A stretch of 64,000 nt of DNA from Rubripirellula sp. (GTDB lineage: Bacteria; Planctomycetota; Planctomycetia; Pirellulales; Pirellulaceae): contig OZ244207.1 in the NCBI GenBank assembly GCA_965216875.1, positions 6,144,001-6,208,000 on the forward strand, given 5' to 3'. The position numbers were made by a program, and so were the translations under genes. Of this stretch, positions 2,536-44,617 are shown piece by piece (position 1 is the stretch's first letter; each line of letters starts with the position of its first letter). The notes below the pieces were generated by a model, which searched no databases, was not told the origin of the DNA, and saw only the letters and a list, made by a program, of their open reading frames with translations.

Positions 2536-5526
2536 TCAAAATGAGGCGTTGTACAGACCCGCGTCGTACAAACCTTGCCCCTGAACACAGACATAGTGGT
2601 GTCCCGGCTCGAGCGGAGGCAACGTTTGAGTTTGGCCGTTTGCCCATTGCACCGTCGTTTCCTTCGCATTCGGTGCATCGCCAAATGCGAACACCAGCAT
2701 CCTTGGTGTAGAAACCTGGTATCCATTGCCGCCCAACAGCTGTTTGCTGATAACCGCGATCCCCTGGTCCGTCTCAAGGCTTAGCGAAACGATCGATCCC
2801 ACGGCGCTGCGTTCGCTCGTCTTTCCGACAAGCTGCAACGTAGCGATCGGATGCGTGACCTGCGTTTCGTTCACGACGAGTGATGGGGGCTCGGTCATGT
2901 GGGTGACCAATAGATCGAGTCGGCCGTCTCGATTCGCATCCATTGGAATCAAGCAGCGGCCCACGTGCGATTGTTGAAAGTAGTCCGTGTCTCGCTCGAC
3001 AACCTTGATCGCTTCGTACACCCCTGTCTTCGATTCACGCCACAAATCTGCCGGCTGGGCATAGGGAGCACCGCTCGCACTGCCACCGCTGACATGACCA
3101 TTGGTGACGAACAATTCCGAGAACCCGTCGTTGTCAAAGTCGATCGCCTTGGCGGCGAACCCGACGCGATTCATTGTCGGCGTCACCAATCGCGCTCGTG
3201 TGGTTTGATCGACCCAAAGCCCTGGCGTCTCTTGCCGGTAGAGAACGTGATACTCATCTTCAAAGCCGGTCACGAAAAAGTCGAGATCGCCATCATGATC
3301 GAAGTCGTCGGCCGCCATCCCCATCGAAGCCTGGGTCCGCCCGCGGCCGTCCACGGCCAGACCGCTCAAGAAACTCTGGTCGACGAATTCAAACGTCGCG
3401 CGGTCGCTCTGCTTTGGCGAGACCAAGACGACATTAGACGACATGTCATTGGCGACAAATAAGCCCATGTCGCTTCCATTCAATCGTCCGGCAAGCACCG
3501 CAAGACTTCGCCCTGGTTCGGGATCGGCCCTCCAACTTTCCGTGACGTCCTCGAACGATCCATCAGGCATTCCTGCATAGCAGCGGTTTGCGGCTGCAGA
3601 AAAATCGAGTGGTGAACAGGGCGCGGGCTTGCCCGAGGAATCAAAACAGACCTTGGCGACTTGATCGTCATCGTCGATGTAGTTGCAAACGAACAGGTCA
3701 AGGTAACCGTCGCCGTTGAAATCGGCCCACGCCCCACTCGTACTCCATTGCGGCGATGAAAGTGCGGACGTGCCAACCACCCGTTGAAAGGTCCCGTCGC
3801 CATTGTTTCGGTAGAGTCGGTTTTCGCCGAAATTCAAAACGTAGACATCGTCAAATCCATCTTGGTTGTAGTCGGCAACCGCAACGCCTTGGCCAAACCC
3901 CGAATCACTCAATCCACTTAGCCGAGTCACGTCGGCTAGCCGCGTGTCGGTCATGCGCAGCAGTGCACCTTGATCACTGTTGTTTTCGTTGATCGTGCCA
4001 CCAGCGGCTGCCAGATACAGATCGGTCTGACCGTCGAGATCAAAGTCCAAAGCACCCGCGCCGCAACCGAGTGAATCGGACAGTGGCACCATCGGCCCGA
4101 ATCGAAGCGGGCCAGTATGCCCGTTGTAGGTGAGCCCAAACTCTTCACTCGATTCGCGAAGCTGGACCGGTTCCTCGCGGGATCGAACCAGGGCTTCGCG
4201 TGTTTCCGGCACCGTGCGAAGCGATTTCGAGACCTGGATTCTCGGCATCGGTAGCAAGTCATCCACTTCCGATTGCCAAGGCGTATCCAAAGACAGACTT
4301 GCAACAATCGCCTTTCGCGTTGCGTCAAACTTTCCGAGCGTTTCTTCGTCAACGCCAGAAGCCTCTACCAACGCGACCGCAACGGCCGACCATGCCTCGG
4401 CTTCCCAACGACGCCCAAGTCGGTCAAGAGTGCGCGCGACTGCCATCGCCTTGATCGGGTCATCATGCCCATCGTGCGAGAAGCTCGTTGCCTCGACCAA
4501 GAGCTTCGCCAACTGCTCTCTTCGATCCTCAAGCGACTTGAGAGTTCGTGTGACCTGTTCGTGCTCATCGACGTCGGCGTCCATCTGTTTCAATAGCATC
4601 GTCATCTCAGCCAACAACGTGGGATCGTTCGGTCGAAACTCGATGGCTTTGGCGGTGGCCTCGACTGACAAGGCAAGCTGCTGGCGTTCTTGGTAGTAAC
4701 GACTCAGGGCGAAGTAGCCGTCCGCGGACAGTTCCGTTTGGCCAATGGACTTGCGCCACTTGGCAAGTTGCTTTTCTTGCCCCAGCATGGCCAGCGACCG
4801 ACCATACAAACCGCTTGCCGGCTTGAATTGAGGATGCTGATCGACAATCGGCTTGGTAATTCTCACTGTCTGTTCGAAATCGACCGCATCAAACGCAACC
4901 GCTGCTTCGGCAATCTTCAGACGCAAATCGCCAGGGTTTCGATTTGAGAGTTCGTTCATTTGTTCGACCGAAAAGCGCCGTCCCGGCAAGACAACCGTCT
5001 CGAGTAGAAACACGTCGAACTTTCGAGCTCGAATGAGCGGCAAGAGATGCGTTGGGATCTCGTCGGTCATCTGTGCCTCACCCAGAAACCCGATCAGTGT
5101 GCGGCGCAGCGCCACATCGTCCGGGCTCTGTTCGATCGCGGCTTGCAGCAGCTCAATCGATTCAAAAAGTCTCCCAACTTCCAAATTGGCTCGGATCGCA
5201 AGATTGATCGTCGAGGCATCCTTGCAACCCTCATGCACTGCACTGCAAAGCATCTCGGCCGCTTTCTCACTCTGCCCCTGTTTTCCGTAGACGAACGCAG
5301 CCGTATGCAGGTAGCTCACGTTGTCGGGATCTTGGATAAGCATCGCCTCGACGATCCTTTCCGCTCGTACATAGTCTTGTTGATTGACGGCTTTGTTGAG
5401 CAGCACCGCCGATGCCTGACTCTCTTCGACGGCAACCGAATCCGGTTCTTGGTGGCCCAGATCCTTGGTTGCACAGCCACCGATCAACGATGCGAGGGCG
5501 ATCACGAGTGGTCTGACGCGCTTCAT
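2536..5526 (-). CDS. TPR + FG-GAP repeat + ASPIC/UnbV (CRTAC1-family) lipoprotein
   Basis: Lipobox LIGGC, helical N-terminal half, repeated DFDxDGxxD Ca-binding motifs, C-terminal GGNGYQ...FGD...VQW. ATG 5526 overlaps the upstream stop (ATGA). Confidence 0.9.
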   Translation of the reverse strand: MKRVRPLVIALASLIGGCATKDLGHQEPDSVAVEESQASAVLLNKAVNQQDYVRAERIVEAMLIQDPDNVSYLHTAAFVYGKQGQSEKAAEMLCSAVHEGCKDASTINLAIRANLEVGRLFESIELLQAAIEQSPDDVALRRTLIGFLGEAQMTDEIPTHLLPLIRARKFDVFLLETVVLPGRRFSVEQMNELSNRNPGDLRLKIAEAAVAFDAVDFEQTVRITKPIVDQHPQFKPASGLYGRSLAMLGQEKQLAKWRKSIGQTELSADGYFALSRYYQERQQLALSVEATAKAIEFRPNDPTLLAEMTMLLKQMDADVDEHEQVTRTLKSLEDRREQLAKLLVEATSFSHDGHDDPIKAMAVARTLDRLGRRWEAEAWSAVAVALVEASGVDEETLGKFDATRKAIVASLSLDTPWQSEVDDLLPMPRIQVSKSLRTVPETREALVRSREEPVQLRESSEEFGLTYNGHTGPLRFGPMVPLSDSLGCGAGALDFDLDGQTDLYLAAAGGTINENNSDQGALLRMTDTRLADVTRLSGLSDSGFGQGVAVADYNQDGFDDVYVLNFGENRLYRNNGDGTFQRVVGTSALSSPQWSTSGAWADFNGDGYLDLFVCNYIDDDDQVAKVCFDSSGKPAPCSPLDFSAAANRCYAGMPDGSFEDVTESWRADPEPGRSLAVLAGRLNGSDMGLFVANDMSSNVVLVSPKQSDRATFEFVDQSFLSGLAVDGRGRTQASMGMAADDFDHDGDLDFFVTGFEDEYHVLYRQETPGLWVDQTTRARLVTPTMNRVGFAAKAIDFDNDGFSELFVTNGHVSGGSASGAPYAQPADLWRESKTGVYEAIKVVERDTDYFQQSHVGRCLIPMDANRDGRLDLLVTHMTEPPSLVVNETQVTHPIATLQLVGKTSERSAVGSIVSLSLETDQGIAVISKQLLGGNGYQVSTPRMLVFAFGDAPNAKETTVQWANGQTQTLPPLEPGHHYVCVQGQGLYDAGLYNASF

Positions 5527-40444: not shown

Positions 40445-40660
40445 AAGTCACCCAAAAGAAATGGAAGTGACCTTTCGGTGTCATTGTCGCCGGTTTTCGC
40501 GTGAAGCAACAGACGGCCACCAGCCGTGAGCTGGCGAGTTTTTTACCCCGTTCGACCAAGTGAGAAGCGACTCGGTCGCGCAAACGGCGTTCATGCGAAC
40601 ACCCCAAGCCCTTCATGCGCGACGCGATCGCGCATGAAGGACCAGCGGGCATCAAGCGAC

Positions 40661-41011
40661 CTACGGTTCCAGGATGAGGCCGCCAAATCCGTCGCCACCA
40701 GCTGCGGTGGCTGCGCCGAACACATTGTTGTCCAAACGACCGGTGTCGGTGTTGGCAAGAATCGTTGCGGCATCGAGCGCGATCGCACCGGATGCTGGGG
40801 TCGTCGTTTCGATCAACTTGCCCGAGACGATTGGACCATTGTCGTCAGCGTGGGCACCAGGCAAGACGGACGCGACTGCGGCGACCAAGTCGCTCGTTTG
40901 ATGACCGAACAGCGACACCGAAGCGGCACAGATAAGTGCGACGCCTGCGATGATCAAACCGTACTCGACCAGACCTTGTCCCTTTTTGTTGCGAATGAGT
41001 TTTCGTGACAT
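40661..41011 (-). CDS. Flp/type IVb-like pilin with extended C-terminus
   Basis: Basic leader, KKG|QGLVEYGLIIA cleavage/Flp motif (E+5, Y+6), hydrophobic helix; AGGA RBS. Confidence 0.85.
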   Translation of the reverse strand: MSRKLIRNKKGQGLVEYGLIIAGVALICAASVSLFGHQTSDLVAAVASVLPGAHADDNGPIVSGKLIETTTPASGAIALDAATILANTDTGRLDNNVFGAATAAGGDGFGGLILEP

Positions 41012-41221
41012 GTAACTGTTTCCTATTGAAAAATGTGCTTAGTTAAAAATGGGGTCGCCGAACGCAAACGGTTCGACAGATTGGTTACTAGGACTGCGTA
41101 GACTCGCAGACCTCGTTTTTTGATCGCGATCGTTCGACCGCAATGACAAGTGAACATGGTTGGTTGCACGCGCTTGCATGAAGAACCAACGACGAAAACG
41201 ACGCGAAACGGATTCCGCAAT

Positions 41222-41626
41222 TCAACCGCCGGGTGGACCTCGAGGAAGAAAGCTCGAGCGTGTTGTTGCGGAAATCAATTCCGCACAACACGGACGCGCG
41301 ACCGCTGCCACCGCCACATCCATGACCACCGATGACTCGATCGGCGCCTGTTGAGGTTGCGCCAGAATTTGGCAGAAAGCACAAGGTGACGAATCGCGTC
41401 GTTTGCGGTCATCAGAAGGATCCGACGGTTCATTGTCGGCTTGTTGGATGGTTAGCGAGCACTCGGGATCGCTGCAACAGGTCACTCCAGCGGTGGAGCG
41501 AACGTAGAAATGCAACGATCGCGGACCGGTGAATTGAACGCAACAAAGCGTCAATACGACCAGCGCAAGCAAGAGCCTTGCGGCTCGCTTGGCTGCGATC
41601 GTTCCTTGACGCCTTATTCGTTGCAT
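41222..41626 (-). CDS. DUF2946/CruR-like leader protein (TM, CxxC, C-terminal RGPP)
   Basis: Hydrophobic N-terminal segment followed by LH, CAFC motif, ends FLPRGPPGG*. Alternative TTG start at 41650. Confidence 0.75.
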   Translation of the reverse strand: MQRIRRQGTIAAKRAARLLLALVVLTLCCVQFTGPRSLHFYVRSTAGVTCCSDPECSLTIQQADNEPSDPSDDRKRRDSSPCAFCQILAQPQQAPIESSVVMDVAVAAVARPCCAELISATTRSSFLPRGPPGG

Positions 41627-41675
41627 GATCAATGTTGGCTCAGTGTTCAACAGATGCGTTTCGACGCTTTCGCTC

Positions 41676-43151
41676 TTACCAAAACCGCGTCAGCCACTTC
41701 CAAAAGGGATGATGCGCCATCGCCACGGTGAACAAGACCGCGGTCGGGCCAATCGCAAACTGGGCCTGCAACGCAGTTTGTCGAAAGCGACTCGAGCGAC
41801 CTCGCTTCGTCATGGCATTCCAAACCAACGAAGCGACGATCCAAAAGACTGCGATCGTGACGGTTGCCTGCCATCCGAGCGACACGCCGAGCAGAACAAA
41901 AGGCACTGGTGATGAAGTTCCAATTCCTAGACGGCGAGACCCCAGCGCGATCATCCACCCGACGATTCCCCCGACCACACAGGAGATGGCGCGGACGGCG
42001 ATGGGCGGCAATGAGTCAGCGATCTTGGTTGGAAGAAACTCGTCAAATGCGACCGGCAGCAACGTCGGAGCGACCACGGCAAGCGCAGTGAATAAGCCAA
42101 TCAACGTGATCGACGCACGTCTTGAGCAGCGCAAGCGATCCGTTTCCATCAACGCAAACACGACCAGGCAACTGAACATGAACACGTGGTAGAAGTAGAT
42201 GCCAATGACGGGCCACTTGGCATAGAGAATGATCCAAAGGATTCCGGCGAAATGGTAATGCTGGAAACTCGGTACATTCGCTGCCCCGGTCACTAGCTCA
42301 TACAAAAAGAGCGAGGAGAAGATGGTTCCCACAACCACTTCGACGGCAAAGTAGCGGACCGGGATCTGGACCTTGCATGCTCGACACCGCCCCTGCAAAG
42401 CCAGGTAGCTCATGATGGGCAGGTTATCGATGCGACGAATTTCGGTACCACACTTTGGACAGGCTGATGATCGAAGTGCGATGGACTCGCCCCGTGGCAG
42501 ACTCGATGCGACGACATTCAGAAAACTGCCGACGCATGCACCCAAGTACGCAAACAGCGAAAAGACAAACAGCTTTGCACTACGAACTCGTAGCAGTTCC
42601 CAAAAGGACATCTTCTCAACGACGAAACCCTCGGGGAGATCCTTTTGATGGCTTGAGAATCCGTCTGATTCGGGCCAAAGCAGCAAATAGACCAGCGCTG
42701 AACCGGCGACAATCACGACCGTGACGGCGCGCATCAGGCCGTTCATCCCCCCTCTTCCGATCACCATCACCACCTCTCTCATTGCGAGAAACGCAACGCA
42801 ACTGAGCATTGCCACGGGTGAGAAAAAAGGGAGTGGTGAAAGCCATTGACCGTCTGCCTGAGCGACGGCGGCAAGTCCTACGCCAACTGATAAAAGAACG
42901 ACCAAACGGACAAGGCCAGCAAACCGGTTGGAAAGGAGTGTTGCCAACGACACCAAACAAGTCGCAATCATGACGAAGGCTGGAAGCCCCGTTGAAACTC
43001 GCGTTGCCCAAATGATCGCGGTGCAAATGGTTGTGCTCAGCAAAACCAAACGCGCATATTCACCCAACAACGAGTTGTTGATGGGGTCGTAGGATGATCT
43101 CGACGTGCGAGCTTCCTGGAGCGCTAGTTGCTGTCCAGCAAAAACATTCAT
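41676..43151 (-). CDS. Prepilin peptidase (A24)-like protein with N-terminal membrane extension
   Basis: GACVGSFLNVV...SACPKC...DNLPIMSYLALQGRCRAC..IPVRY is the PilD N-terminal Zn domain, preceded by about 190 aa of TM segments. Start trimmed to ATG 43151. Confidence 0.85.
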   Translation of the reverse strand: MNVFAGQQLALQEARTSRSSYDPINNSLLGEYARLVLLSTTICTAIIWATRVSTGLPAFVMIATCLVSLATLLSNRFAGLVRLVVLLSVGVGLAAVAQADGQWLSPLPFFSPVAMLSCVAFLAMREVVMVIGRGGMNGLMRAVTVVIVAGSALVYLLLWPESDGFSSHQKDLPEGFVVEKMSFWELLRVRSAKLFVFSLFAYLGACVGSFLNVVASSLPRGESIALRSSACPKCGTEIRRIDNLPIMSYLALQGRCRACKVQIPVRYFAVEVVVGTIFSSLFLYELVTGAANVPSFQHYHFAGILWIILYAKWPVIGIYFYHVFMFSCLVVFALMETDRLRCSRRASITLIGLFTALAVVAPTLLPVAFDEFLPTKIADSLPPIAVRAISCVVGGIVGWMIALGSRRLGIGTSSPVPFVLLGVSLGWQATVTIAVFWIVASLVWNAMTKRGRSSRFRQTALQAQFAIGPTAVLFTVAMAHHPFWKWLTRFW

Positions 43152-43462
43152 GATTTTGGTCCGTTCCCAGGAATGGATCGACAAGTCGAATTCACAGGAG
43201 CGATGGCTTGTTCGTGACGTTGATTGTTTGCCAGGATCTGCTGTATCTGTAATCGAAAGGGCCAAAGGAGCCCTGACTGCGCGACGCGCCACCGATCGGG
43301 TTTGGTCGGACCGTGACCGATCACACGTTCGCGCAGCAGGACGCGTGTAGCATGCAGAACCAGGCGAGAACGAAACGCAACCTGTCCGTGTGAATGCGCG
43401 CATCGAATGTTCGCGAGCGCATCGGCAGACGATCTGGGTTGACTATTCAGTCGTGATGATGA

Positions 43463-43963
43463 TCAGACCAAGAGAGGTGGCCCACGCGGATGTGCCGCTG
43501 TGAACCATGGTTGAGGCTGGGAAAGAACGGTTGCGGTAACGACAACATCAACTGCCGTACCACAAACCTCGGGGATGAATCCCGTCCACTTCACACCAAC
43601 GGGGCAGGCCAACGATTGGCAAACCACGCAATCATCGGCGTCATGGTGGTGGTGAGAACCGCTCTGCTCGTGGTCGCCCAATCCGGTGGAAGCGGGGTCG
43701 CCCAATCCGGTGGAAGCGGGGTCGCCCAATCCGGTGGAAGCGGATTGAGCAGAGGAGCGAGCAGTTTCGTTGTCAGCGTCACCTTGTTGTCCGCCGTGAT
43801 GGTGACAGCAATGGCCGCAACTTGGCGCCGGCGCGTCTTCCTGTTCAAAAGCCGTAGCGCACGAGTCTTCACACGTTGCCACATGGATCCACGCTGGCAC
43901 GCGACCGAAGACGATCAGCAGGCAAATCGTGGCGGCGATGAAGGGTCGGATAACAGAATGCAC
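43463..43963 (-). CDS. DUF2946/CruR-like leader protein (TM, His/Cys-rich, CxxC, C-terminal RGPP)
   Basis: TM then WIH; CGHCCHHH; HHHHDADDCVVC; ends HPRGPPLLV*. Confidence 0.8.
   Translation of the reverse strand: MHSVIRPFIAATICLLIVFGRVPAWIHVATCEDSCATAFEQEDAPAPSCGHCCHHHGGQQGDADNETARSSAQSASTGLGDPASTGLGDPASTGLGDHEQSGSHHHHDADDCVVCQSLACPVGVKWTGFIPEVCGTAVDVVVTATVLSQPQPWFTAAHPRGPPLLV
43672..43743. repeat. Perfect 3 x 24-bp in-frame tandem repeat
   Basis: GGTCGCCCAATCCGGTGGAAGCGG three times; encodes repeated ASTGLGDP. Confidence 0.95.
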
Positions 43964-44124
43964 AGCACTGAAACGGCTACGAAAGACACCGGGTGCGGTC
44001 CGACCAAAAGACTTGCAAGAGTTACGATGACTACCCAGCGGTGGTTCGTCAAGTAACCCGAAGCCTCAAAGTCCTATTTCGTCGTCTCCGCACCTCCTTG
44101 TGCGATCGGCGAGCCTATTTCGAG

Positions 44125-44424
44125 TCACTCATGCGTTAAATAGTCAACCAACGCGTCAAACGCATTCAGATCGTATTTATTGAGGTAATCATCTTTTGAT
44201 TTTGGTTGAGACGAAAGTTTGACGACTGCGATCTTTCGGGTGGCATCAAGGTAGATCCACTGACGATGGATACCGATCGCCATGAACGCTTCTCTGCCCT
44301 TCGTGTGTTTGACCCACCACTGCCCTCGATAGCTCCACTCACCTTTGGCGTGAACGTAGTCATCAGAATCAGGACCGGTATCGAATGCTTCGATGCTGCC
44401 ACCTTTGGCAATCGTCCGAAGCAC
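44125..44424 (-). pseudogene. C-terminal fragment of a serine hydrolase (NylB/beta-lactamase-like)
   Basis: YRGQWW...MAIGIHRQWIYLD...VVKLSSQP matches the family C-terminus. No SxxK region; only about 110 nt separate it from the tRNA 3' end. Confidence 0.7.
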
Positions 44425-44531
44425 GTCCGAGGGAAAAGGCTGAGAGAGTCTGGCGATACCTGAAGGTTGAGTGGTTAGAGGGGGAACGCAGCCTCGTCCA
44501 CGATCTTCGAAGATGTCTCACGATTGAGAAG

Positions 44532-44617
44532 TACCCAGGACCGGACTCGAACCGGTACAGCCGCATTTGGCCGGGGGATTTTAAATCCCCTGTGTCTGCC
44601 AATTCCACCACCTGGGC
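44532..44617 (-). tRNA. tRNA-Leu (anticodon TAA)
   Basis: GCCCAGG/CCTGGGT acceptor stem, GGAATTGGCAGAC D-arm, GGGGA-TTTAAAA-TCCCC anticodon arm, long variable arm, GTTCGAGTC T-loop, discriminator A. CCA not encoded. Confidence 0.97.

Follow-up and report, generated by a model that had tools for sequence, protein, structure and literature searches.

The closest described counterpart of the genes studied here is CruR (Bp2923) of Bordetella pertussis, the prototype of DUF2946 (PF11162; Roy et al. 2022, PMC9426467). The available text of that paper characterises DUF2946 by a CXXC motif, by a RAPP-like motif close to the C-terminus, by an export signal and by a long intergenic region. Members are expected to arrest translation at the motif in a way that copper modulates. 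CruR is the first gene of its operon and has the export signal, the CXXC and R(A/G)PP 2-3 residues before the stop; its CXXC-RAPP spacing, 45 ± 1-2 residues, matters for regulation, and its intergenic region spans 162 nt (PMC9426467). A second system, CutF of Rhodobacter capsulatus, is likewise an exported leader with a Cys motif; it ends in a proline-type arrest motif and acts in cis on the gene that follows (PMC9973294; bioRxiv 10.1101/2025.02.05.636593). There, a stem-loop masks the ribosome-binding site of the next gene across a short intergenic region, and CutF-like intergenic regions are mostly below 100 nt (PMC9973294). More broadly, as far as the available text of Fujiwara et al. 2025 (PMC12992588) goes, upstream ORFs with C-terminal RAPP or RGPP encode small secreted or membrane proteins and precede diverse genes; these motifs arrest translation robustly in varied contexts and are strongly avoided in proteomes.

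The window, that is, the stretch of 64,000 nucleotides of planctomycete DNA analysed here, carries two leaders of this kind. As the earlier note had described, leader1, an A24_N-domain gene, leader2 and a Flp-like pilin gene follow each other in this order, all co-oriented on the minus strand. Leader1 (43463..43963, minus strand) is a 166-aa DUF2946-like upstream ORF with a GTG start, and its C-terminal part reads CVVC, 44 residues, RGPP, LLV, stop. Leader2 (41222..41650, minus strand) has 142 aa, a TTG start with an in-frame ATG as codon 9, and a C-terminal part that reads CAFC, 43 residues, RGPP, GG, stop. The shared layout is thus as first noticed, with a hydrophobic N-terminus, a CxxC, a spacer of 44 or 43 residues, and RGPP 3 or 2 codons ahead of the stop. 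The N-terminal transmembrane segment ending in His recurs too: a hydrophobic 15-mer (KD >= 1.6) is found in 52 of 53 family members and His27 is kept in at least 90%, the best 15-mers of leader1 and leader2 reaching KD 2.41 and 2.72, which by hydropathy only agrees with the export signal or Nin-Cout TM segment of DUF2946 leaders. The untranslated gaps were also as announced, 210 nt between leader2 and the pilin gene (41012..41221, minus strand) and 311 nt between leader1 and the A24_N gene when counted from Met85. All sequence hallmarks of the CruR paper are present in both leaders (PMC9426467), which differ from CruR by RGPP instead of RAPP, by a sub-threshold Pfam score and, in the case of leader1, by a conserved hairpin, R1, in the intergenic region.

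The coding signal of the leaders is weak, with mean log-odds of codon usage of -0.004 and -0.129 versus 0.26 for the pilin, and one antisense frame at leader1 scores slightly above leader1 itself. Their layout occurs in the genome more than expected by chance. Among 94,282 stop-to-stop frames of at least 50 aa in the 8.26-Mb genome, only 15 have R[AG]PP within the last 8 residues; four of them are paralogues in which CxxCQ stands 43-46 residues ahead of that motif. Before CVVC, leader1 has a His/Cys-rich region, and it includes a perfect tandem repeat of 24 nt x 3 (43672..43743, minus strand; 100% matches, score 144) that encodes (STGLGDPA)x3 and is an insertion relative to the paralogues. This repeat sits N-terminal to CVVC, and the CxxC-RGPP spacing is therefore unaltered.

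We found members of the leader family in 36 of 101 related genomes. In the 53 members aligned, the spacer is 42 (2), 43 (19), 44 (21) or 46 (11) residues, the arrest-type motif is RGPP (39), RAPP (12) or RGSP (2), and 2-9 residues separate this motif from the stop. Leader length varies from 126 to 265 aa (median 155). The mean column identity is 14%, and only four columns are invariant (C112, C115, R160 and P163), which points to selection on motifs and spacing rather than on a fold. At least 4 His precede CxxC in all but one of the 53 leaders; the exception is leader2, which is atypically His-poor, with a single His. Its nearest relatives are other leaders with 43-residue spacers, and those of leader1 have 44-residue spacers and stand before pilin or DUF1559 genes. 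Searching both leaders against PF11162 had been proposed as a check, with a mixed outcome. Leader1 (15.0 bits, E 0.044) and leader2 (14.7 bits, E 0.054) both fall short of the gathering score of 23.7 bits, but the profile recognises 27 of the 53 relatives at E<=0.1, with 1.3e-8 as the best value. The window leaders are therefore divergent relatives, not Pfam members. On these sequence grounds, both small ORFs probably encode regulatory leader peptides of the CruR/CutF (DUF2946-like) class, as divergent members of it.

What these leaders head sets them apart from CruR, whose targets are a TonB-dependent transporter/PepSY pair in Proteobacteria; here, in Planctomycetota, the window leaders precede genes for an A24_N membrane protein and for a Flp pilin, neither of them a metal-homeostasis gene. 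Among 56 leader matches, three main target classes account for 15 leaders each: Flp pilin/tad, DUF1559 pilin-like and DUF58/MoxR genes. The survey of leader-pilin synteny upheld this pairing, the first downstream gene being a Flp-like pilin for 15 of the 56 matches, followed by Peptidase_A24 in 9 of the 15 and by RcpC/SAF in 3. Seen from the pilins, a leader lies just upstream and co-oriented in 19 of 24 homologue loci, across genera, with intergenic regions of 210-462 nt (17 pairs); for two close homologues, G066 and G013, no leader was found in the 1.5 kb examined. This recurrence in relatives suggests that adhesion pili may be switched by a nascent peptide. As for other targets, CobW/COG0523 genes are headed by sister leaders, and so are ZnuA-like genes, as assigned by reading of the sequences. 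Further downstream, both the tad locus (4 of 14 pilin-class loci) and the MoxR operon encode His-rich secreted proteins. Together with the His-rich leaders, these sister targets and downstream proteins are hints of a metal.

The pilin of the window (40661..41011, minus strand; 116 aa) is a Flp-like (type IVc/Tad) prepilin with the cleavage motif KKGQG/LVEYGLI. Around the cleavage site (MSRKLIRNKKGQG/LVEYGLIIAGVALI), a short leader ending in Gly precedes a hydrophobic helix with E5-Y6. It passes Class_IIIsignal (27.7 vs 23.7 bits), stays below the cut-off of Flp_Fap (PF04964; 15.4 vs 32.2 bits) and has no match in an NCBIfam search, so that it would probably figure as hypothetical in a survey based on annotation. 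The gene has no adjoining assembly genes. Its product shares 88% identity with the pilin from the complete tad locus of the genome, which has TadV (Peptidase_A24), RcpC/CpaB, TadE, an AAA_31 ATPase, T2SSE and two T2SSF genes and is itself headed by a paralogous leader. We read the window locus, with reasonable though limited confidence, as a satellite of the main tad locus, in which another copy of the pilin gene, preceded by a 43-spacer leader of its own, would stand behind a lineage-specific pair of leader1 and A24_N gene.

This last pair is unique to this genome among the best 30 A24_N-like loci: the postulated pairing of leaders with A24 genes did not hold up, since none of the others has a co-oriented upstream leader. 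The gene encodes a polytopic membrane protein (41676..43151, minus strand; 491 aa from Met85) with a zinc-ribbon A24_N domain. Its longest ORF spans 41676-43403 and begins 59 nt from leader1, but the first ~70 codons look non-coding in codon usage, so that Met85 (43151) is the likely start. The earlier note called it prepilin-peptidase-like, which is right for the N-terminal A24_N_bact domain (PF06750; E 1.4e-28, 99.2 bits) and not for the catalytic part: there is no match to Peptidase_A24 (PF01478) at E<=1 in the protein, C-terminal membrane domain included, and a whole-genome search found PF01478 only at three other ORFs. Peptidases of family A24 (PilD/TadV/FlaK) have two catalytic Asp, the second of them in a GxGD motif; G-x-G-D is absent from the sequence here, which makes the suggested role as a maturation factor doubtful. 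Across 10 orthologues, D338 is the one Asp in the membrane domain that never varies, and a conserved box of glycines has the form G..LGWQA, its GWQA being invariant. Flp pilins have their own TadV peptidase inside the tad locus. As to a GxGD-protease membrane fold, the AF2 model (pLDDT 70.7) had no Foldseek match in pdb at E<=0.001, and VIA-align placed FlaK (3s0x_B; Z 9.7, rmsd 4.7, 153 residues aligned over 318-491 of the model) at rank 18 among helical bundles.

We think it probable, from the motifs and by analogy with the described systems, that the two leaders act as ligand-tuned arrest switches of the genes downstream. Each leader would be taken to the membrane by its N-terminal hydrophobic segment and would present a ligand region of His and Cys that ends in CxxC, plus the terminal RGPP. 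With the ribosome at RGPP, where we infer that it arrests, the 43-44 residues in between would put CxxC at the mouth of the exit tunnel. A ligand bound at CxxC, most likely a metal ion, would alter the duration of the stall. The stalled or released ribosome may then decide, whichever the direction of the presumed response, if transcription crosses the long intergenic region and reaches the gene beyond. In CruR, a stalled ribosome keeps Rho off the RNA, and it may do so here by analogy; the intergenic regions of 210 and 311 nt compare with 162 nt in CruR, and the genome has Rho genes (PMC9426467 for CruR). A putative Rho step has no local signature at the 3' end of the leaders, where C>G rut-like windows are at background level (best ratios 1.5-2.5; background median 1.75, 90th percentile 2.31). 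Unlike in CutF, the leader-pilin regions are long (210-462 nt, versus mostly <100 nt), and no pairing of the leader end that masks the ribosome-binding site was found in the intergenic region of either leader1 or leader2 (PMC9973294 for CutF).

The intergenic region after leader1 contains a new element between leader and target. R1 (43244..43345, minus strand) is a GC-rich stem-loop of ~100 nt; its apical GGUCCGACCAAAC is invariant, and a short U-run comes after the hairpin. The fold of the whole region has a z of -2.54, and 25 nt of it are identical to the intergenic region of the tad locus; the R1 match at leader1 (E 3.1e-14) is one of only 2 in the genome. The element occurs in 26 places in 22 of the 101 family genomes, with a leader upstream at 23 of the 26, and it covaries: 88.7% of cells are paired versus 80.2 ± 1.0 in shuffles, and 14 pairs show double changes versus 8.5 ± 1.8. 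Neither value was reached in any of 500 shuffles, and slid controls gave 35-52%. A search with the curated covariance models of Rfam 15 over positions 40500-44200 of the window returned no match at E<=1, and R1 is not in Rfam. For leader1 and the leader of the main tad locus, R1 may be the pause or termination point of the switch. It is not a canonical intrinsic terminator, because its U-run is short (3-4 U) and offset. In trp/his-type attenuators, a translated leader is followed by a hairpin and a U-run ahead of the regulated genes. The order of parts is the same here, but no alternative antiterminator pairing is established for R1, and R1 lies 94-274 nt past the leader stop, too far for the leader ribosome to touch it. 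The region between leader2 and the pilin gene lacks R1; a weak hairpin that resembles a terminator (41202-41219) adjoins the leader2 stop, and the fold of the region is no better than that of shuffles (z -1.63, not significant).

Could R1 join all these genes? It is conceivable, though we hold it for doubtful, that, in this planctomycete family, Tad/Flp adhesion pili and the enigmatic DUF1559 pilin-like proteins form one leader-peptide regulon, in which metal- or redox-sensing RGPP/RAPP arrest acts via the family-specific R1 and its invariant CCGACCAA loop. If so, leaders and R1 would make up an arrest-coupled transcription attenuator of a new kind, and surface attachment would be tied to metal supply.

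The resemblance of R1 to a terminator also fits an opposite view, that leader and pilin are separate transcription units, with R1 ending the leader transcript. On this view, the leader would be no switch in cis but a neighbour of the pilin gene, perhaps regulated together with it. The intergenic lengths (210-462 nt) agree with this, as do two boxes, TGGTCAGG and CTCGTTTT, conserved 20-60 nt upstream of the pilin ATG with little structural support (consensus energy -5.1 kcal/mol), which could be a separate promoter. A sigma-70 scan gave 1 site versus 2.2 expected, under a consensus that may not be that of this phylum. Yet the leader adjoins the pilin, co-oriented, in 19 of 24 loci across genera, the same leader type is the first gene ahead of three other unrelated gene classes, and 14% mean column identity speaks against a stable protein role for the leader. 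The first-gene position is, moreover, a hallmark of DUF2946 upstream ORFs (PMC9426467). We consequently regard separate units as unlikely.

The leaders may instead be arrest peptides that do not sense metals. The stall would be freed by the pulling of Sec/YidC export, as in SecM, VemP or ApdA/ApdP, or CxxC would report thiol/disulfide redox; either way, the cell would adjust how much membrane-inserted pilin it makes to its export capacity or to the redox state of the envelope. This would account for the N-terminal hydrophobic export segment of 52 of the 53 leaders and for the single His of leader2; prepilins are, besides, inner-membrane proteins. RAPP/RGPP upstream ORFs are also enriched before sec and DsbA/thioredoxin genes (PMC12992588). 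Against it, the invariant CxxC at 42-46 residues from the arrest motif and the His-rich tracts match the ligand-sensing DUF2946 prototypes, the CruR signal peptide is dispensable (PMC9426467), and sister leaders head CobW and ZnuA-like genes, all of which makes arrest of this kind quite unlikely. That the small ORFs encode stable exported proteins, metal-binding or pilus-accessory, in which RGPP has a structural or processing role with no regulatory arrest, would suit their fair length and His/Cys-rich, metallochaperone-like composition, but is very improbable when the sole invariant columns are CxxC and R..P of RGPP, the motif is 2-9 residues from the stop in all 53, leader1 tolerates a perfect 3 x 8-residue repeat expansion, and proteomes strongly avoid RGPP/RAPP, which halts translation in a range of contexts (PMC12992588).

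Ligand-tuned arrest thus remains our preferred reading. The claim that this leader type had not been described as controlling a pilin module stands for Flp pilins in the literature searched: pilin, Flp, prepilin and pilus are absent from the main and the available supplementary text of PMC12992588, a text that does not cover the RGPP list. It does not stand for pilin-like targets, since 'DUF1559 domain-containing protein' is enriched in the source data of Fig. 4B of Fujiwara et al. 2025 (112 RAPP vs 68 AAPP; PMC12992588).

These results bear on two poorly understood features of planctomycetes, their pili and their hugely expanded family of DUF1559 pilin-like proteins. R1 is a candidate for a cis-regulatory RNA of a new family and, with the three conserved parts of the leaders (CxxC, spacer and RGPP), it provides an experimental handle. 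To our knowledge, metal sensors that work as nascent peptides, of the CruR/CutF type, have until now been linked with genes of metal uptake and detoxification. If the same device switches Tad/Flp pili, the attachment and biofilm behaviour of a major aquatic group would be wired to a chemical cue at the ribosome.

The locus consists of four co-oriented genes on the minus strand of the window, in the order read by the earlier note: leader1 (43463-43963, 166 aa), a gene encoding an A24_N-domain membrane protein (A24-like gene, 41676-43151), leader2 (41222-41650, 142 aa) and a Flp-like prepilin (40661-41011, 116 aa, with KKGQG/LVEYGLI). Both leaders have the layout ascribed to them. Leader1 shows an N-terminal hydrophobic segment, a His/Cys-rich stretch, CVVC, 44 residues, RGPP, LLV and the stop, and leader2 a hydrophobic N-terminus, CAFC, 43 residues, RGPP, GG and the stop. 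The longest ORF of the A24-like gene starts at 43403, and its first ~70 codons have non-coding-like usage, so that Met85 (43151) is the likely start. Counted to this codon, the gap behind leader1 is 311 nt and the one between leader2 and the pilin gene 210 nt, in line with the long untranslated gaps noticed earlier; leader2 itself starts 25 nt past the end of the A24-like gene. The layout is not a product of chance, because in this 8.26-Mb genome only 15 of 94,282 stop-to-stop frames of at least 50 aa have R[AG]PP within 8 residues of the stop, and four of these are paralogues with CxxCQ 43-46 residues upstream of it. A perfect tandem repeat of three 24-nt units within leader1 (43672-43743, minus strand) encodes (STGLGDPA)x3. 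It lies N-terminal to the CxxC, leaves the CxxC-RGPP spacing unaffected, and is a recent in-frame expansion. The locus is followed by a TPR protein and preceded, directly beside leader1, by tRNA-Leu(UAA) (44531-44617, minus strand) and a beta-lactamase-like fragment (99 aa within 44125-44617, minus strand; PF00144 E 0.005, C-terminal part only). Since a same-genus genome lacks the locus, a recent insertion or rearrangement beside the tRNA gene may have brought it here.

The window leaders belong to a divergent family. We searched a profile of four paralogues against 101 genomes sampled from the taxonomic family of this organism and found 56 matches in 36 of them. Of these matches, 51 have R[AG]PP 2-9 residues from the stop and CxxC 42-46 residues upstream, two more have RGSP instead, and the remaining three are broken or false. 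In the 53 aligned leaders, whose mean column identity is 14%, the only invariant residues are four: both Cys of the CxxC and, in the arrest motif, the R and the final P. Membership of DUF2946, which the earlier note proposed to check by a PF11162 search, failed for the window leaders themselves (15.0 bits for leader1 and 14.7 for leader2, vs a threshold of 23.7) and found support among their relatives, 27 of the 53 matching at E<=0.1 (best 1.3e-8). DUF2946 proteins such as CruR are characterized by an export signal and by a CXXC that a spacer of 45 +/- 1-2 residues separates from a RAPP close to the C-terminus; their genes come first in the operon, ahead of a long intergenic region (IGR) (Roy et al., PMC9426467). 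The family leaders share with CruR the CxxC, the R(A/G)PP, the spacing and the long IGR. RGPP and RAPP are described as the most robust arrest cores, and small ORFs carrying them stand before many kinds of genes (Fujiwara et al., PMC12992588). Given the sub-threshold scores, the matching relatives, the CruR hallmarks and the published arrest at these motifs, we class the leaders as putative, divergent arrest leaders of DUF2946-like type and do not count them as Pfam members. The nearest relatives of leader1 are leaders with a spacer of 44, including that of the main tad locus of the genome; those of leader2 have a spacer of 43 and stand before pilin genes of other genera. Leader2 is also the only one of the 53 with fewer than four His before the CxxC, and may therefore respond differently or be decaying.

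The association with pilins extends well beyond the window. To define targets, co-oriented ORFs (at least 100 aa) that begin no more than 1 kb behind each of the 56 matches were run through Pfam. The nearest of these is a Flp-like pilin gene (Class_IIIsignal) in 15 cases, nine of which continue with Peptidase_A24 and three with RcpC/SAF. It is a pilin-like protein with DUF1559 and N_methyl in another 15, and a DUF58-like gene in 15 more; among the latter, 11 have a DUF58 match at E<=1e-3, mostly below the Pfam cut-off, and four were placed by like size and operon layout alone. CobW comes first in two cases, and TPR, PEP-CTERM, TonB_C and the A24_N protein of the window in one each; no target was called for five matches (contig end, broken or false). 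A spacer of 46 goes with the DUF58 class, and spacers of 43 and 44 with pilin, DUF1559 and CobW. Approached from the other side, the window pilin has homologues at 24 places, spread over 19 of the 101 genomes, and 19 of the 24 places have a leader directly upstream (17 with R[AG]PP, one with RGSP and one C-terminal fragment at a contig end). The homologues in G066 and G013 have no leader within 1.5 kb upstream; the other three leaderless ones are a second pilin 8.7 kb along a leader-headed tad locus and two weak matches. Leader-pilin synteny, put forward for a survey, is thus conserved. At the best-match leader loci of other families of the phylum, our motif test found no Flp-motif ORF within 900 nt downstream (0/27), so the Flp pairing looks like a speciality of this taxonomic family among the sampled genomes; by eye, about ten of these 27 loci have DUF1559-type genes and three ZnuA-like ones.

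The same genome shows where the window pilin may fit. A paralogous leader (C1:4949376-4949843) precedes a pilin 88% identical to that of the window, behind which lies a complete tad locus with TadV (Peptidase_A24), RcpC/CpaB, TadE, an AAA_31 ATPase, T2SSE and two T2SSF. As this locus is complete and headed by such a pilin behind a paralogous leader, the window locus is its satellite. Another paralogue (C1:1141368-1141802) heads an operon of DUF58-like, transglutaminase-like, MoxR and His-rich proteins, the last of which, very rich in His, ends the operon (locus L002). A secreted, His-rich coiled protein (13% His) also stands behind TadV in four of the 14 pilin-class tad loci (L001 5122-5631, plus strand; L033, L062 and L080). 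PEP-CTERM proteins are a further recurrent cargo of leader-headed operons (L195 2263-3776, minus; L048 1293-2066, plus; L196 1624-2409, minus) and have a common N-terminal domain (…FTFVVGD…EHGDIGV…GELELHYH…).

The description of the A24-like protein as prepilin-peptidase-like holds for the N-terminal domain (A24_N_bact, E 1.4e-28) and fails for the catalytic one, as the protein has no Peptidase_A24 match at E<=1 and its sequence lacks the GxGD motif. In this genome PF01478 occurs solely at three other ORFs, the TadV of the tad locus among them. Across ten orthologues, a single Asp of the membrane domain is invariant (D338, in D-R-x-R), and a G..LGWQA box is retained as well. A PDB sequence search gave no matches, nor did Foldseek with the AF2 model (pLDDT 70.7). 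A VIA-align superposition of model residues 318-491 on the GxGD protease FlaK (3s0x_B) was middling (Z 9.7, rmsd 4.7, 153 residues aligned) and at most hints at a helical membrane domain. The options for this protein are an atypical peptidase and a pseudo-peptidase. A similarly built housekeeping paralogue occurs in 97 of the 101 genomes (C1:8028222-8029541 in the window's genome), and A24_N-domain proteins without GxGD or a Pfam Peptidase_A24 match, with invariant D-R-x-R and LGWQA, form a planctomycete-wide family. The expected leader-A24 synteny did not generalize: apart from that of the window, none of the 30 best A24N-like loci is preceded by a co-oriented leader, and a same-genus genome lacks the gene copy, so the leader1-A24N pairing is lineage-specific. 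A24N-like paralogues adjoin leader-headed operons in two other genomes. One (G043) has the order His-rich lipoprotein (L195 6341-6925), A24N-like gene, leader and two PEP-CTERM proteins; in the other (G096) the paralogue lies beside a divergently transcribed leader-DUF1559-PEP-CTERM operon.

Between many leaders and their target genes lies an RNA element. A 25-nt stretch 3' of leader1 is identical to one 3' of the tad-locus leader, and forms the tip of a GC-rich hairpin of ~100 nt (R1), with copies in the leader1-A24N IGR (43244-43345, minus strand) and in the tad locus (C1:4949927-4950026, or L001 3928-4027, plus strand). Its invariant loop is CCGACCAA, a short U-run, slightly offset, lies behind it, and its 13-nt core, GGTCCGACCAAAC, lies with at most two mismatches 94-274 nt past the stop in 19 of the 53 leaders. 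Covariation supports the structure. Paired cells (88.7% vs 80.2 +/- 1.0 in shuffles, with slid controls at 35-52%) and double-change pairs (14 vs 8.5 +/- 1.8) both reached values seen in none of 500 shuffles, figures that come from related sequences and are subject to the tool's caveat on kinship. The covariance model identified only these two copies in the window's genome at E<=0.01 (150 of 3829 first-look candidates scored), 26 places in 22 of the 101 family genomes (19 of them its own training sequences) and none in 150 genomes of other families under stricter filters. A leader stands upstream at 23 of the 26 places. R1 goes with leaders of spacer 43/44 (pilin, DUF1559, TPR, PEP-CTERM, TonB_C and A24N classes); it was found with no DUF58 or CobW leader, nor in the leader2-pilin IGR of the window. 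Rfam has no such family. By that measure R1 is undescribed, and it is a candidate for a new cis-regulatory RNA that would act as a pause or attenuator hairpin. The core recurs with one mismatch just 5' of leader1 on the opposite strand (43997-44009, plus), and two exact copies at C1:500531 (plus) and C1:46465 (minus) have no match to the whole model. At L183 (G055) and L186 (G001), R1 has no leader detected within 500 nt upstream and precedes a membrane protein of ~215-220 aa starting ...INLDALGMCAS.LC.LHC..., which may be MerC-like.

The best-supported reading is that these arrangements probably work as a switch of the CruR type. The ribosome would arrest at RGPP, as established for this motif elsewhere; the CxxC/His region, 43-44 residues back at the tunnel exit, would bind a ligand and so change the duration of the stall; and the presence or absence of a ribosome at the leader end would decide whether RNA polymerase, perhaps paused at R1, enters the target gene. 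Rho genes are present in the genome. Direct contact of the ribosome with R1 is excluded by geometry. The CutF mode, in which the next RBS is unmasked, fits short IGRs, unlike those of the leaders here (PMC9973294). Masking of the RBS by the leader 3' end, in the style of CutF or SecM, was rejected, as the pairing appears in the MFE fold of neither window IGR (z -1.63 for the leader2 IGR), and so was an intrinsic terminator after leader2, where there is just a weak 7-bp hairpin with two G-U pairs. The best 78-nt windows of rut-like C>G bias do not exceed the genome background; in nine of 17 loci their peak begins 60-93 nt ahead of the leader stop codon, so that it overlaps the Pro-rich leader 3' end, and is probably a by-product of composition.

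One rival is a separate pilin promoter inside the IGR. The pilin 5' region has a conserved TGGTCAGG(CGGC) box (L001 about 4190-4205, with aligned positions in A2/A3), and in group B loci a box of TGGTCAGG type lies directly 3' of R1. This box is partly complementary to the R1 loop, and a variant group has loop GACCAG and box CTGGTC. In 13 of 19 loci the loop could pair with a TGGTC box further downstream (individual p-values 0.02-0.9). Taken one by one, the matches are not significant; the box may serve such pairing, or be a promoter or a site for a protein. A sigma-54 reading of the TGGTCAGGCGGC box was discarded by eye, its spacing being wrong. Conserved structure is weak in the ~110 nt that lead up to the pilin start (-5.1 and -11.5 kcal/mol), with few compensatory pairs. 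A second rival keeps the leaders as sensors, monitoring secretion or redox instead of metal. For the leader branches that head CobW and ZnuA-like genes, these targets of sister leaders hint at zinc as the signal, and the His-rich proteins of the tad and MoxR operons and of the G043 locus are a circumstantial link to metal. Finally, the leaders might act as stable proteins.

Part of this is known. The leader type itself is established (CruR, CutF), as is its wide use before diverse genes (PMC12992588). The earlier note knew of no such leader before a pilin module, and this stands for Flp pilins and tad operons, directly before which we found no published description of one; it does not stand for the DUF1559 pilin-like target, which is present in the source data of Fig. 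4B of PMC12992588 (112 RAPP vs 68 AAPP). That paper uses 'pilin', 'Flp', 'prepilin' or 'pilus' neither in its main text nor in the supplementary text examined, outside which its RGPP list lies, and in PMC9973294 PILIN appears solely among the signal-peptide categories of a figure legend. Literature searches linking RGPP with pilin, or arrest peptides with pilus, returned nothing relevant by title or abstract. The window pilin has no NCBIfam match, and annotation-based surveys probably miss this target for that reason. The leader-pilin feature is real and conserved, and adds Tad/Flp pili to the putative target classes of these leaders, together with a companion RNA hairpin.
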